From the NCBI RefSeq assembly GCF_056746865.1, contig NZ_CM163382.1: a DNA stretch of 64,000 nt; one strand, given 5' to 3'. Under the pieces are notes generated by a model, which had not been told where the DNA came from, searched no databases, and was given only the letters and a program-made list of their open reading frames with translations. A program made the translations under genes and the position numbers. Numbering within the stretch: position 1 is the first letter of the stretch; each line of letters opens with the position of its first letter. Below, piece after piece: positions 24,600 through 34,025 of this stretch.

Positions 24600-25376
24600 T
24601 CACCAGTCAAAACTTTTCACCAGCGTCAGCTCACCAGCATTACGCATCGGTACAATAAATGTTTCCTGTTTCTCATTGACCGATCCTTCATCGGTGATCA
24701 GCGTCAGTTGGGCGGTGGTTAATTCCGTTTCGCTGCGTCCGCCATAGTAGTTGATATACACCTGATAACGTCCGTGAATCGGCGCTGGCATGGCGAAAAT
24801 CTCGGGGCCGTACCCCGTCGTGACATCCATATCCAGTGCACCACTGTTTTTCAGCACGGTGTTACCGTACCAGGCGTGTTCGCCATCAGGTGTAACAACG
24901 TGAAGGTCGAGGTCGGTATTGTCCGTATCCCAGGAGAGAACCAGCCGTAAACGCGCGCGGATCACTCCAGCGCCCGGCGTTGAGTAAAACTGCATTTTTT
25001 GTCGGCTTTGCCCATCTGGGCTGATGACCTGCACGCTGTTGCTGCCTTCAGTGAAAATATAAGGGCGTGCAAATGAACCATCGGATTCAATTCTCTGCGG
25101 CATACTGGCACCGTTGACCACCAGCCGGCCCTGCTGAACTTTACCCACCGCAGCATAATTCTTTATTTTGCCGCGGATCTGCGCTGAGATATTTTGATCA
25201 TCTGCCATGTTGACGGACGACGCCGGGTAATTGATCGATTGTGAAAAACTGGCATCTTCGCCCTCTGCCGGATGCCAGCCAGAGAGCGGTGCGTCAATCT
25301 CGACTTCCTGCACACCTTCACTGTGAGCGACAGGCGAAAGCGCCACCAGTAACAACGGAAGAAAAATCTTTCGCAT
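24600..25376 (-). CDS. yfaP: YfaP, DUF2135-family secreted protein (258 aa)
   Basis: Translation MRKIFLPLLLVALSPVAHS (signal peptide) ...; last gene of yfaA-T-S-Q-P cluster. Confidence 0.85.
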   Translation of the reverse strand: MRKIFLPLLLVALSPVAHSEGVQEVEIDAPLSGWHPAEGEDASFSQSINYPASSVNMADDQNISAQIRGKIKNYAAVGKVQQGRLVVNGASMPQRIESDGSFARPYIFTEGSNSVQVISPDGQSRQKMQFYSTPGAGVIRARLRLVLSWDTDNTDLDLHVVTPDGEHAWYGNTVLKNSGALDMDVTTGYGPEIFAMPAPIHGRYQVYINYYGGRSETELTTAQLTLITDEGSVNEKQETFIVPMRNAGELTLVKSFDW

Positions 25377-25380
25377 AGCA

Positions 25381-27030
25381 TTAGTCCATTAATAATTGTC
25401 GGGTCAGCGTTTCGATATAGTTCTCATCAAGCCCGGTGGGATAACCATCAAAGGCCAGGTGCAGATACTCATGGGTTAAATCCAGCCGATCCTGAAGCGT
25501 AAAGAAGTTACGAATAAACAGCCGTTTCTGCTGCCGATCGGTATAGGGGAAACCTGAGACTAAACGACAGACCGCAAACACGTCTGGTTCGTTGTACCCC
25601 GTCTCGCCTTGTAATATACGCCGCCACTGCGGCATTTTTTTCGCCAGCCAGGCTTTCGCTTTGGGTAATAACTGACAGGTTGAGCGTGGCGCTCCCCAGC
25701 GGCTAAGGCTGTTGTCGGGATAAGCAAACGCGAGTATCTGGTCGTAACGCTCCCCCTGCCCCGCCTGGGCCATGGCTTGCCGCCAGGAAAGCGTCCCTTC
25801 GGTAGCGCGACTGCCGTGATAATGAACCGGATCGCCCGCATAGATAAGATCCTGCGTCCAGGCGGCCATCGTTCGCGCCCCCGTGGTCGCTGGCGAAGCA
25901 GAAACACGCTGCGTGGCGCTGCTGTCGGGGATGGTCAGGCAATCGCCTTCCCGATTGGCGTTTTGCTGTAAAAAAGTGCGAATCGCCACGGTCATGGCTT
26001 TCGCTGCCTCAGGGGGCGTACTTTTCGCCTCGCGATCCAGAACTCTGGCAACGTACTCTTCACGATCGAGATGCGACTGCAATTTCAGTTTGCCCTTTTC
26101 GCTCAGTAAGGTCGTCTCACCGTGGCTGACAAACGTAATGTGGTTACCATTAGTAAACGTCACACGATAGCGCCCATTAAGTACGCCGGGTTTTACTGCC
26201 GTCGTACTCTTTTCCGCTGTGATTTTCTTCAGCGGATAGCGGGCAAACAGCTCCACCTCTACACATTGCCCACTGGCAACTTGCGTCGGCACTGGCAAAA
26301 CCCGATTAAGCACCGTCGCATAACGGGTCAGTACCGTTTTGCTGGTGCCACTGCCAGTAACCCACAGCGGTGTACCATCGGTTAACCAGCCAGCAAAACC
26401 ACCCTGACGGATTTCCTGCTTATCATCGGCAAACCAGCTCCAGGTTTTCACCCGTACCCGACTACCGAGCATGGATGCAACTCCGATTTTCGCCTCGTCC
26501 AGCACCACATCCAGTAAGACTTCCTGAGCTTTGTTTTGCGCAGGTAACGTCGCTAATGAATCAAGCAGTGATTTAACCGTTACCGAGGCTTCTGGCTTCA
26601 GCGTAGTAAGAGACGCTAACCACGCAGGTGCCTGACGCTGTTGCCAGTATTGCCCCCATACATCTGCGCCAATATGCAACCGCTGCGGCGCAAAATAGAG
26701 CCCACAGGAACGTACCAGCGCGGTATCGCGCGTTATGCTCTCCCCAGCCTGACAACAATAAACCTCTTCCGGGGAGTTTCCACGACACTGGTAGGGCTGC
26801 TCCGGTTGATGGGTATCCTCCAGCCAGGCGTAAACATACAGTTTCCACAAACTCCCTAACGGCGTGGTGAGAGTGTCAGGTAATGCTGAGACTTTGGTCA
26901 CGCCTGATGACGACAGCTGATACAGTTGATCGTGCTGCGCACCGCGCAGCACCAGTTGTAACGGCGTCTCCTCCGCAAGCGTTGGCAGAGTAACCAACGC
27001 CAATAGCCAGACGATTCTGCGCCAGTTCAC
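25381..27030 (-). CDS. yfaQ: YfaQ, DUF2300-family secreted protein (549 aa)
   Basis: Translation MNWRRIVWLLALVTLPTLA (signal) ...; adjacent to yfaS. Confidence 0.85.
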   Translation of the reverse strand: MNWRRIVWLLALVTLPTLAEETPLQLVLRGAQHDQLYQLSSSGVTKVSALPDTLTTPLGSLWKLYVYAWLEDTHQPEQPYQCRGNSPEEVYCCQAGESITRDTALVRSCGLYFAPQRLHIGADVWGQYWQQRQAPAWLASLTTLKPEASVTVKSLLDSLATLPAQNKAQEVLLDVVLDEAKIGVASMLGSRVRVKTWSWFADDKQEIRQGGFAGWLTDGTPLWVTGSGTSKTVLTRYATVLNRVLPVPTQVASGQCVEVELFARYPLKKITAEKSTTAVKPGVLNGRYRVTFTNGNHITFVSHGETTLLSEKGKLKLQSHLDREEYVARVLDREAKSTPPEAAKAMTVAIRTFLQQNANREGDCLTIPDSSATQRVSASPATTGARTMAAWTQDLIYAGDPVHYHGSRATEGTLSWRQAMAQAGQGERYDQILAFAYPDNSLSRWGAPRSTCQLLPKAKAWLAKKMPQWRRILQGETGYNEPDVFAVCRLVSGFPYTDRQQKRLFIRNFFTLQDRLDLTHEYLHLAFDGYPTGLDENYIETLTRQLLMD

Positions 27031-31635: not shown

Positions 31636-32192
31636 CGGGTGTCCTTCCATGTCATAAGTTGTTGCAGACTGACTGCGCGCATTCCGTTGTCAGTTTTCGT
31701 AGCGCTTCCGGTGTGGTAGATGACGTAACGCCCCATCCAGACCATTAAGTGCTGGGCATCGCCCTGATCGAAAAAAATCATATCGCCAGGCAGCGCCTGG
31801 TTTATGTCCTGGCCAATGAACTGGCTGTTATATTGAATCAAATTAATCGCGGTCACATAGGGGCCGGTTTTTCCGTTCCCCTGATTCCAGTTTTGCGCCA
31901 GTTGACGCTGTTCAGGTGTTAGCGTCATTTCAGGCGGCAAATACTGACTTGCTATACCGTTACTTTTTAGCCATTTGCTGTCGTGAATTTTCAGCGCCTC
32001 GTTCGCCGAAAATCGCACCAGGCCCGCACAATCCTGCTGATACCAGCGTGGGCTTGGCCCCTGGCGGAGTTGTTCCTGTGCAATGCGTACAAACCACGCG
32101 CGAAACAGCCCCGACTGTTCGACATTCAGCATTTCGCTATGGGCAACAACACAACACAGCCAGCAAATCAGCGCCAGCAGCCCGTGCCTCAT
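31569..32192 (-). CDS. yfaT: YfaT, DUF1175-family protein (~207 aa)
   Basis: Translation ...[19 protein letters not shown] (signal) ...; the ORF may start 9 codons earlier at 32219. Confidence 0.82.
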
Positions 32193-33877
32193 AGCGGCTG
32201 CCAGGTTATGGGTAGCCACTGCCAGGCGGCACCGGGTTCCATCTGGGCCAGCTTCATGACATAACGCGGTTGTTGAGATAAAGCGTCCAGCTTCGGCATT
32301 AATAAAGTTTGTGCGGCGTTATAAAAAACCGGTTCGAGATTCTTCGGCAGACTGGTCAACGTTTCGTTACGCAGCAGTTTCGCCACGCCTTGTGGATTGA
32401 TATAGAGCGGAACGATGCCATCAGTGGGTATTACATCCACCATTGCCGGGCGGGTTTTATTCAGTGTTTGCAGGGCGTTATTAACCAGCGTGTCATCGAG
32501 GGAGAAAAGCAGCGTTTTGTTTTGCATCGCCAGCGACACGCGGAAAAAATAATCCGACATTAATTGATCGGGTTGCGCCGCCTGCGCTTTCGGATACTGG
32601 CCGTATCGGGAACTCACTTCGCGACGCCAGATTTGCGCTTCGCCCTGCTGAGTCTGGCTTACCGGCAAAACACCTTCTGGCGCTTTGCTTTCGTGCGCAC
32701 CAATATTTTGCGTGAACAGTTTCCCAGGCAGTTGTGCCTGTTCGGCTGAGCCATCAAATTGACCAACAAATAGCGGGGTTTGTAATTTTGAGTCTTCATA
32801 CCAGCACAGCCCGGCTGCACCATCTAACGCCCCGTTCAGCTTGTCGTTTTCCTGGCTGATGTGCGAAAGCATCTCTTCGGCAATACCATGCGAATACGGC
32901 ACCGCCACACAGAAGCTGGCCCCGGCAGGCATACTGTTCCATACCGGCGTAAAATCGAAACTGGCATCTACGCTTGCGGATTCATCATTTAACGCCACAA
33001 AGCTATGCCAGCCGTCGTTGCTCATTTCGAAGCGTACACCAGCAAAAGAAGGCATTAATCGCTGGTAGCCAAACCCCAGCAACCTGGCGCTGACCACGAT
33101 GCGCTGGCGTACTGGCGTTTTTTCAGCAGCACGCTCTTCCAGGCCAAAGCTGGCTTGCCAGCGTTTTTTACCGCTCAACAAATCACTTGCGATCGCCGTG
33201 GCTTCGGTATCCTGCTGGTCATCTTTAAACAGCATATCCGTACTGGAAAACACCAGCATCTTGTCCTGATAAGTCGCGAACATCAGGGCGTTATTGCCGT
33301 TATAGCGCAACTGATAAACCGGGATGGTTTCACTATTTAGCTTAATACTACTGATTTCCGTTTTGCTTAACTGGCTGTCGCTGGTAGCGGCAAACAACAA
33401 TGGCTCCAGCAGTTTGCTTAAACCACTGCGCTGGATCAGCACCATGTAATGTGAAAGATGGCCTTGTTTATCGTGCCATAGCGCCGCCTGCGCGGGCTGA
33501 TCTAAGAGTGACGAAAAGAGCTTATCTTTCAGCGTGAGATCGTGTTCATAGACAATGCGGCGAATGCTGCCTTCAATGCCCAGACGATCGGCATGATTCT
33601 GATAATAGAAAACGAAATCTTCACTCAGAACATCGTGGAGAAACGGAATGGTAAGGAGGTCTTTGGGAAGCTGGCTCAGAGAGTCGCTGTCGAGAAAGAG
33701 GTCCGGCTCATTGAGATCGATTTGCAGATTGTTGTGCACCACCAGCGGCGACAACGTTTTTTCTGGCCCACTGCCAGCATATTGCAACGCCCAGACGCCA
33801 GCGGAAAGCAGTACTATTGCGCCCAAACATACAAGACCATAGAACCGCCAGCCTTTCGCCTTTTTTTCACCACTCAT
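32189..33877 (-). CDS. yfaA: YfaA, DUF2138-family protein (~562 aa)
   Basis: Translation [30 protein letters not shown]...; first gene of the cluster; an alternative start lies 14 codons upstream at 33919. Confidence 0.82.
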
Positions 33878-34025
33878 TGCCACATTCCTTGTGTAAAGCC
33901 AGCCATTTTTTACGAGCACAGCAAAACTTTACCGCGCCCTAATACGACAAAAGCCCAGACTTTGCAGCCTGGACTTTTCAATTCAAACAAGGGAGATAGC
34001 TCCCTTTTGGCATGAAGAAGTAAAA

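Follow-up and report, generated by a model that had tools for sequence, protein, structure and literature searches.

The stretch of DNA analysed here, hereafter called the window, comprises 64,000 nucleotides of contig NZ_CM163382.1 (RefSeq assembly GCF_056746865.1) and carries at positions 24600-33919 the gene cluster yfaA-yfaT-yfaS-yfaQ-yfaP. Its five open reading frames (ORFs) are co-directional and fill this interval on the minus strand; the plus strand holds nothing comparable. We regard the cluster as very probably an intact, wild-type yfaATSQP operon, the enterobacterial version, with five genes, of the type II alpha-2-macroglobulin (A2M) system magABCDEF of Pseudomonas. This degree of confidence covers the identification, while the mechanism rests on transfer from Pseudomonas. 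The genes and boundaries of the locus are the following:

32189-33877, minus strand: yfaA, annotated ATG at 33877, longest ORF to 33919 (GTG); 562 aa, DUF2138
31569-32192, minus strand: yfaT, annotated start at 32192, longest ORF 31569-32219; 207 aa, DUF1175/MagC family, NlpC/P60-like
27031-31635, minus strand: yfaS, K-12 start ATG at 31635, ORF open to 31650; 1539 codons, 1534 aa from the K-12 start
25381-27030, minus strand: yfaQ; 549 aa, counterpart of MagE
24600-25376, minus strand: yfaP; 258 aa, DUF2135/YfaP_C, counterpart of the paralogous pair MagF/MagA
33878-34025, minus strand: gyrA-yfaA intergenic region of 148 nt, with a gyrA terminator-like hairpin at 33989-34006
24539-24560, plus strand: terminator-like hairpin in the 73-nt gap between atoB and yfaP, marking the 3' boundary of the cluster

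Gene identities, coordinates and orientation agree with a first-pass annotation of the same sequence, which had also described the junctions as very short or overlapping; with the annotated K-12 starts they measure -4, -67, 0 and +4 nt in the order from yfaA to yfaP. The continuous yfaS frame of 1539 codons (27031-31650), singled out by that annotation, was found again, and an ORF of 4.6 kb is far beyond chance expectation. The cluster is flanked by convergent atoB (ending at 24526) and co-directional gyrA (34026-36653). The gap between gyrA and yfaA, at only 148 nt, has no room for a sixth gene like magA, and the operon promoter presumably sits there. The G+C content is flat over cluster and flanks (0.50-0.56). 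A recent horizontal acquisition in this strain was rejected because of this flat profile and because the cluster occupies the same atoB/gyrA site in all sampled genomes.

The central gene, yfaS, was submitted to Pfam as two overlapping pieces and aligned, in a profile of 20 family members (alignment A1), with macroglobulins of known structure. The macroglobulin (MG) domains and the sites discussed below lie at these positions:

30316-30606, minus strand: MG2 domain, YfaS residues 344-440 (PF01835, E 1e-18)
29218-29655, minus strand: A2M bait-region domain (A2M_BRD), residues 661-806 (PF07703, E 4e-17)
28777-29025, minus strand: A2M domain, residues 871-953 (PF00207, E 6e-12)
27085-27411, minus strand: bMG10 C-terminal domain, residues 1409-1517 (PF17973, E 1.8e-5)
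29065-29085, minus strand: T851-NRSERR-857, equivalent in A1 to the MagD bait ANRSERG (847-853; bait from PMC5764988)
28417-28440, minus strand: thioester-equivalent P1066-W-G-G-V-I-N-T1073, with Cys replaced by Gly1069 and Gln by Asn1072 in the profile alignment
31522-31635, minus strand: predicted YfaS signal peptide, residues 1-38, ending in GLANA before DD; shares 67 nt with the 3' end of yfaT

YfaS belongs to the bacterial alpha-2-macroglobulin superfamily, with tandem MG, bait-region and A2M domains, so that the domain annotation proposed as a check in the first-pass annotation did find macroglobulin domains. The TED family gave no Pfam match in YfaS. A PDB search with the single sequence returned weak matches to the MG2 domains of C5 and CD109 only, and ECAM was not reached from the single sequence by phmmer at E<0.01. 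The A1 profile matched ECAM/YfhM (4rtd, 4ziq, 5a42) at 6e-13 and the Salmonella A2M (4u48) at 1e-10, and it also matched C5, CD109 and TEP1.

The lack of a CxEQ motif, noticed before, is confirmed: the YfaS translation contains neither C.EQ nor C..Q, and cysteine occurs in it only at C25 and C27, both within the signal peptide, and at C1189. In the profile alignment 'ePyGgvvnTas' stands opposite 'yPYGCLEQTAS' of ECAM. With Gly1069 in place of the cysteine and Asn1072 in place of the glutamine, thioester formation is impossible in YfaS. The earlier assignment to the thioester-less, MagD-like class is thus borne out by P-W-G-G-V-I-N-T opposite P-Y-G-C-L-E-Q-T of ECAM and by the mag-type neighbours. 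As read from its sequence, YfaS is a multi-MG-domain macroglobulin of ~165 kDa with a predicted Sec signal, in which CxEQ has turned into GVIN.

The start of YfaS deserves comment, as RefSeq/PGAP places it at GTG 31545 (1504 aa, e.g. WP_000536505.1), a codon with no Shine-Dalgarno sequence before it. ATG 31635 is preceded by AAGGA 6 nt upstream, and the N-terminus read from it has a basic n-region, a hydrophobic core of 18 residues and a cleavage site ANA/DD (the slash marks the cleavage site), with A38 invariant in A1. The homologues in A1 carry signal peptides at the same position; in Escherichia alone, I22-A-A-C25 would also match a lipobox. Because the N-terminal extension shares its DNA with the conserved 3' end of yfaT, its conservation is not independent evidence. 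The RefSeq start at GTG 31545 probably removes the signal peptide and could mislead predictions of localisation.

The site equivalent to the MagD bait is strongly conserved. The exact sequence ANRSERG occurs at the aligned position in >30 Pseudomonas homologues, and the surrounding stretch (YfaS ~849-872, window 29020-29090) hardly varies between E. coli and Pseudomonas. The baits of classical A2Ms, in contrast, are hypervariable, and the constancy seen here suggests that the stretch is processed at a defined site or serves one particular target enzyme.

The partner proteins point to the same system. YfaA matches DUF2138 in Pfam (E 1.7e-287), has a signal-anchor helix at residues ~11-35 (window 33773-33847) in the AlphaFold2 prediction, and is the only protein of the cluster matching an NCBIfam model (PRK11410, 'hypothetical protein'). 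YfaT matches DUF1175, now named 'MagC' (4e-58), weakly NLPC_P60 (1.6e-3), and the crystal chain 7bk8_A 'MagC' (E 9e-103, ~73% identity over 186 aa). Its Cys55 (32028-32030), His148 (31749-31751) and His160 (31713-31715) occupy the positions of the NlpC/P60 triad, and its Cys and His align to catalytic residues of RipB 3pbi. This similarity marks YfaT as a close orthologue of MagC, an NlpC/P60-like protein that binds peptidoglycan, and DUF1175/MagC has been described as catalytically inactive and peptidoglycan-binding (PMC10318531). YfaP matches PF09906 (DUF2135/YfaP_C, E 3e-17) and shares 55% identity with the protein in the MagF position and 43% with that in the MagA position of Pseudomonas. 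An NCBIfam match of YfaP to BADH was discarded as noise (19 bits against a cut-off of 669), and PDB searches with YfaP and the YfaA profile gave nothing meaningful. By inspection, YfaT (residues 1-19), YfaP (residues 1-19, MRKIFLPLLLVALSPVAHS/E) and YfaQ (MNWRRIVWLLALVTLPTLA/E) all begin with Sec-type signal peptides, as the first-pass annotation had it, and a Sec/signal peptidase I signal has been reported for YfaQ (PMC12282094). The term 'secreted', which had been given to the cluster, should read periplasmic or inner-membrane-associated; YfaA has a signal-anchor helix, as does MagB.

YfaQ contains two DUF2300 segments and a SpoIID segment in Pfam, the architecture of MagE. The fold matches are confident and place a penicillin-binding/beta-lactamase-fold domain at the N-terminus and a SpoIID-like domain at the C-terminus. 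This bipartite fold has already been reported in a text in which yfaS and macroglobulins have zero occurrences (PMC12282094). Relatives are few, 294 among 1.84 billion representative proteins, and 58 full-length ones of 27-49% identity were aligned (alignment A2). Conserved positions, numbered in the full-length protein, are:

26842-26853, minus strand: S60xxK63 (SxxK), S60 and K63 in 57/58 each
26704-26709, minus strand: S108-C109, 58/58
26443-26448, minus strand: K195-T196, 58/58
26029-26055, minus strand: Y326, R329, R333 and E334 (span Y326 to E334), SpoIID motif including the catalytic Glu, 58/58
within yfaQ, minus strand: D369, Q374 and R375, 58/58
within yfaQ, minus strand: C452 and C488, 58/58
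25459-25473, minus strand: H520-E521-x-x-H524 (H-E-Y-L-H), 58/58

Six residues past HExxH, position 530 is His in 50 of the 58 relatives and Tyr in E. coli, and E536 is kept in 55 of them. The C-terminal half has what defines SpoIID/LytB proteins, namely the SpoIID fold and the conserved motif with the catalytic Glu. In the N-terminal half the KTG motif reads K-T-[FWY], and no canonical SxN motif was identified. YfaQ differs from SpoIID/LytB lytic transglycosylases on the one hand and from class D beta-lactamases, penicillin-binding protein (PBP) transpeptidases and BlaR1-MecR1 on the other in that it fuses both folds in one predicted periplasmic protein encoded in an A2M operon. Those families, moreover, have no HExxH at the last helices, while that of the YfaQ family is invariant. 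No published role is known for the HExxH, SxxK, K-T or SpoIID-Glu residues of YfaQ/MagE. Cells deleted for yfaQ are wider, and their phenotype profile groups with those of peptidoglycan and envelope mutants; in laboratory media no signal of a YfaQ-msfGFP fusion could be detected (PMC12282094).

The type II class of bacterial macroglobulins was reportedly defined already by Budd et al. in 2004. The locus in the window shows its features: no CxEQ at the homologous TED site, and an operon with DUF2138, DUF1175, DUF2300 and DUF2135 that does not lie beside pbpC. The class and the Mag system itself belong to the earlier literature (PMC3735191, PMC5764988). In P. aeruginosa (magABCDEF, PA4492-PA4487) the gene order is the same, with DUF2138 as MagB, DUF1175 as MagC, the A2M as MagD, DUF2300 as MagE and DUF2135 as MagF; the comparison with this operon suggested by the first-pass annotation thus gave matching order and Pfam families, with only the leading magA missing. 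Further likenesses are the signal peptides on the soluble members, the single transmembrane helix on the DUF2138 protein, a macroglobulin without thioester and probably without lipoprotein anchor, and the bait ANRSERG, to which TNRSERR of YfaS corresponds. A locus in P. citronellolis has the six-gene magABCDEF layout (YfaP_C-DUF2138-MagC-A2M-DUF2300-YfaP_C), and Serratia and Yersinia have the five genes of E. coli (DUF2138-MagC-A2M-DUF2300-YfaP_C); the genomic neighbourhood differs among the three. Identities to the homologues of these three loci are 46-52% for YfaA, 55-56% for YfaS, 52-53% for YfaQ and 55-61% for YfaP (43% to the MagA-position copy); to Pseudomonas-group homologues in general YfaS is 54-56% identical. 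Across genera YfaT stands out by its conservation, with 68-71% identity compared to 43-61% for the other four proteins.

The E. coli operon differs from the Pseudomonas one in having five genes, without the leading magA, a paralogue of MagF. A six-gene operon is therefore not what the window holds; the five-gene order is a known enterobacterial layout variant and no ground for exclusion from the class. The E. coli site GVIN is more degenerate than GVEQ or CVEQ in Pseudomonas-group homologues, yfaS and yfaT overlap by 67 nt compared to 4 nt in P. citronellolis and Yersinia, and the mag operon of Pseudomonas is under Gac/Rsm control.

The Mag system itself has been studied. MagB (589 aa, one transmembrane helix) is the inner-membrane anchor of MagD, which is periplasmic, associates with the inner membrane through MagB and binds MagA, MagB and MagF in a 1:1 ratio (PMC5764988, PMC3735191). 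MagA and MagF are paralogous (COG4676; PMC3735191). Processing of MagD from 165 to 100 kDa depends on MagB, and it is also lost on deletion of magE. Zouhir et al. replaced its bait ANRSERG with a tobacco etch virus (TEV) protease site, and after bait cleavage MagD retains the protease non-covalently (PMC5764988). The mag operon protects against effectors of type VI secretion systems (T6SS), namely VgrG3 and Tae1, which target peptidoglycan (PMC12663445). Our literature search found no newer structures of the Mag complex. The description of the cluster as poorly characterised therefore suits E. coli but not Pseudomonas, for which biochemical, structural and phenotypic data exist (PMC3735191, PMC5764988, PDB 7BK8, PMC12663445), and even in E. 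coli YfaQ has recently received a phenotype and a fold assignment (PMC12282094).

The type I macroglobulins ECAM/YfhM of E. coli and Sa-A2M of Salmonella (PDB 4ZIQ, 4RTD, 5A42, 4U48) are more distant relatives, homologous in their multi-MG, bait-region, TED-like and C-terminal MG10 organisation. The profile match to ECAM/YfhM (6e-13) extends over MG domains and over the part of the TED that surrounds the thioester site, yet sequence similarity between YfaS and ECAM is very low. Both type I proteins are periplasmic and associated with the inner membrane, as YfaS would be, and the genetic coupling of ECAM/YfhM to PBP1c has a parallel in that of YfaS to YfaQ, likewise of a penicillin-binding fold. 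Of the type I hallmarks (CxEQ, a lipobox anchor, adjacency to pbpC), CxEQ is lacking in YfaS, which has a signal of the Sec/signal peptidase I type and no clear lipoprotein anchor; its neighbours are yfaT and yfaQ, and it has four dedicated partners rather than pbpC. Without CxEQ, trapping by YfaS cannot be covalent, unlike that by ECAM and Sa-A2M. None of the five proteins matched PADLOC-DB at E<=0.01, so the cluster is not among the anti-phage defence systems catalogued there.

The loss of the thioester is not uniform in the mag/yfa clade. Of 73 full-length close YfaS homologues (at least 54% identity), 31 have CVEQ at the thioester position, 20 have GVEQ, 1 has SVEQ and 19 have GV[IV]N. In the CVEQ homologues the motif Cys is the only Cys of the mature protein, and the CVEQ-bearing protein of P. 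citronellolis lies inside a complete six-gene mag-type operon. As CVEQ is kept in 31 of the 73, the label 'thioester-less' does not define the clade cleanly. From these variants, the thioester appears to have been lost stepwise, from CVEQ to GVEQ and then to GVIN. MagD of P. aeruginosa itself had no exact match among the retrieved homologues (markers ANRSERG 847-853 and the signal-peptide cleavage site AVQAEDT), where these markers led to close Pseudomonas relatives only.

The first-pass annotation had described yfaS of K-12 as a frameshifted pseudogene. The gene (b4500) is indeed annotated as a pseudogene in MG1655, and PGAP gives 'internal stop' for a K-12 derivative, but the frameshift does not stand: K-12 yfaS (4605 nt) aligns end to end with that of the window, without an indel and at 96.9% identity, so the pseudogene is due to a single nonsense substitution of TGG to TGA. 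The site is:

27532-27534, minus strand: TGG (Trp1368) in the window, TGA in K-12; the single disabling change, W1368*

W1368* removes the last 167 residues of YfaS, including the bMG10 domain (1409-1517). It is a recent nonsense mutation and the sole reason why K-12 has no full-length YfaS. The exact K-12 61-mer around the TGA was found in 364 of 5426 complete genomes, and those listed are overwhelmingly laboratory K-12 derivatives. A frameshift does occur in O157:H7 strain PV15-279, where yfaS carries a +1 frameshift in a run of ten G (CCGTGGGGTGGCGTG in the window, CCGTGGGGGGGGGGTG in O157) and YfaQ codon 265 is changed from TAT to the stop TAG (Y265*; yfaQ at 783-2432 of the PV15-279 locus). 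This frameshift falls in the thioester-equivalent codons (window 28417-28440; about 3809-3869 of the PV15-279 locus), and the exact 61-mer containing it is present in 62 complete genomes, including O55:H7 DEC5B. Truncated protein variants are numerous in the database. Strain S1-ZIM-01-A, otherwise 100% identical to the window, carries IS1A in the 3' part of yfaS (3132-4128 of that strain's locus, equivalent to ~27031-27260 of the window), a third independent route by which E. coli lineages lose the C-terminus of YfaS.

These lesions are set in a locus that is otherwise general in the species. By megablast, all but one of 5426 complete E. coli genomes (5425) contain the cluster region (24400-34100), with coverage of at least 80% in 5178, nearly all at 95-99% identity, and the gene order of the matched region is constant (yfaP/yfaQ/'alpha-2-macroglobulin family protein'/yfaT/yfaA). 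Strain EC31 (NZ_CP056036.1) has the same 9.3 kb byte for byte, annotated in RefSeq as five intact genes; its YfaS, WP_000536505.1, is identical to that of the window from residue 32 onward. The protein cluster of full-length E. coli YfaS (90% identity) counts 40,950 member sequences, and yfaQ was found in ~98% of 131,610 E. coli genomes, being missing from some sequence types (PMC12282094). Between the window and K-12, the ratio of nonsynonymous to synonymous substitution rates (dN/dS) is 0.059-0.080 in each of the five genes. The yfaATSQP cluster is a core operon under purifying selection and no rarity. Intact yfaS was also seen in the sampled strains of other backgrounds (B, APEC O2:K1, PK5074, EC31); it is the rule in E. 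coli and the broken K-12 copy is the exception. The value given to this intact copy as a useful study subject is therefore overstated, with the cluster in 5425 of 5426 genomes.

On the analogy with Mag, YfaATSQP likely functions as a periplasmic complex, anchored in the inner membrane, in which proteases are trapped non-covalently and by which the cell wall is protected, also from T6SS effectors that degrade it. The Yfa proteins would be exported to the periplasm and would assemble on the inner membrane through YfaA, and YfaT and YfaQ may tie the YfaS complex to peptidoglycan. An invading hydrolase that cleaves the YfaS bait would cause a conformational change of YfaS by which the enzyme is held non-covalently. 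The cell wall would thereby be shielded from the trapped enzyme, for instance a T6SS effector that degrades peptidoglycan or a protease of the host.

Several observations weigh against this picture. The only experiment on the E. coli proteins is the yfaQ deletion, made in K-12 with YfaS already truncated (PMC12282094), and a phenotype in such a background implies that YfaQ may work without YfaS. In Pseudomonas, MagE was located in the cytoplasm in spite of its signal peptide (PMC3735191), and trapping by MagD was demonstrated only with the engineered TEV bait and was incomplete (PMC5764988). Unlike the variable baits of broad-spectrum A2Ms, the bait-equivalent stretch of YfaS is nearly invariant and would suit a processing site no less than a bait. 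As E. coli has no magA paralogue, the stoichiometry of the complex may differ from that of Mag. A scan for a sigma-70 consensus upstream of yfaA, in the 148-nt gap, gave no match. Finally, the repeated inactivation in K-12, in O157:H7 and by IS1 insertion indicates that the cluster is dispensable in some niches.

Of the other explanations, the one that survives best sees the cluster mainly as a module for peptidoglycan remodelling or repair, in which YfaQ and YfaT would be active enzymes and YfaS would be a scaffold, a regulator, or a substrate processed at NRSER...RPRRE, and not a trap for foreign proteases. We consider it possible, though on balance unlikely. The near-invariant motifs of YfaQ (SxxK 57/58; KT, SpoIID Glu and HExxH 58/58) and its confident fold matches would suit a putative enzymatic activity of MagE/YfaQ, but K-T-[FWY] in place of KTG and the lack of a canonical SxN argue against it. 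YfaT, the most conserved protein of the cluster, keeps Cys55, His148 and His160, yet DUF1175/MagC is filed as catalytically inactive and peptidoglycan-binding (PMC10318531). A processed YfaS would agree with the near-invariance of its bait-equivalent stretch and with the block of MagD processing (165 to 100 kDa) on magE deletion, but MagD does trap TEV protease once the bait is cleaved (PMC5764988). The yfaQ deletion phenotype, seen in K-12 without full-length YfaS (PMC12282094), and the protection by MagD against peptidoglycan-targeting effectors including a lysozyme-like non-protease (PMC12663445) also point to a role in the wall. Highly improbable is the explanation that the cluster in E. 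coli is what remains of a decaying island, gained by horizontal transfer and without current function, the intact copy being one not yet disabled: the independent inactivations (K-12 W1368*; O157:H7/O55:H7 yfaS frameshift and yfaQ Y265*; IS1A in S1-ZIM-01-A), the many truncated protein variants in the database, the patchy taxonomic distribution with differing neighbourhoods in Serratia, Yersinia and Pseudomonas, the sequence types missing yfaQ and the undetectable YfaQ-msfGFP in laboratory media (PMC12282094) would fit it, but it is opposed by a dN/dS that, between distant E. coli lineages, is 0.06-0.08 for each of the five genes, by the presence of the cluster in 5425/5426 genomes and a full-length protein cluster of 40,950, by a G+C content indistinguishable from the flanks, by the confinement of the K-12 allele to at most 364 genomes, mostly laboratory strains, and by the morphological phenotype of the yfaQ deletion (PMC12282094).

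Elsewhere in the window, colinearity with EC31 (99.93%) places an IS200/IS605 tnpA remnant and an intact TnpB/InsQ RNA-guided endonuclease gene between yfaY and yfaV; in the K-12 map this position is presumably taken by rhmD/rhmR (yfaW/yfaX). No tRNA genes were found in the window. The further features, the first three from colinearity with EC31 and the others from Rfam at its gathering threshold, are:

~60927-62568, minus strand: IS200/IS605 tnpA remnant and TnpB/InsQ gene
~57626-58585: ISNCY-family transposase gene beside glpC
~49366-50436: frameshifted hypothetical gene downstream of glpQ
10316-10409, plus strand: MicF small RNA, 116.8 bits
14070-14146, minus strand (also scores on plus), 14184-14260, minus strand, and 44334-44404, minus strand: naRNA4/repetitive extragenic palindromic (REP)-type elements, 62.9-84.3 bits

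The operon and its class are already known, the locus is an ordinary part of the core genome, and its exact sequence is already in RefSeq; as a source of intact yfaS thousands of strains would serve equally, and the window itself is of little weight. Data from K-12, however, come from a natural yfaS W1368* mutant without the C-terminal bMG10 domain, and the O157:H7 lineage is a different, double knockout (yfaS and yfaQ). What is mildly new concerns the wider family only, namely the YfaQ motifs and the CVEQ polymorphism, and nothing on the window itself. The conservation of catalytic motifs in YfaQ, the invariant HExxH and the parallel with YfhM-PBP1c are our own reading of the data. From these motifs we put forward, as a speculative and rather doubtful proposal, that YfaQ/MagE could be an active enzyme and not a passive chaperone, with HExxH as a possible zinc site, perhaps that of the protease processing YfaS/MagD at its strongly conserved 'bait'. 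Together with YfaT, the operon might then form a self-contained module for sensing of wall damage, trapping of enzymes and repair of the wall, an analogue of YfhM-PBP1c in which the thioester is dispensable. If this is true, YfaQ/MagE would be a catalytically competent cell-wall enzyme, which, like the thioester polymorphism in the mag-type clade, would bear on what type II bacterial macroglobulins do.

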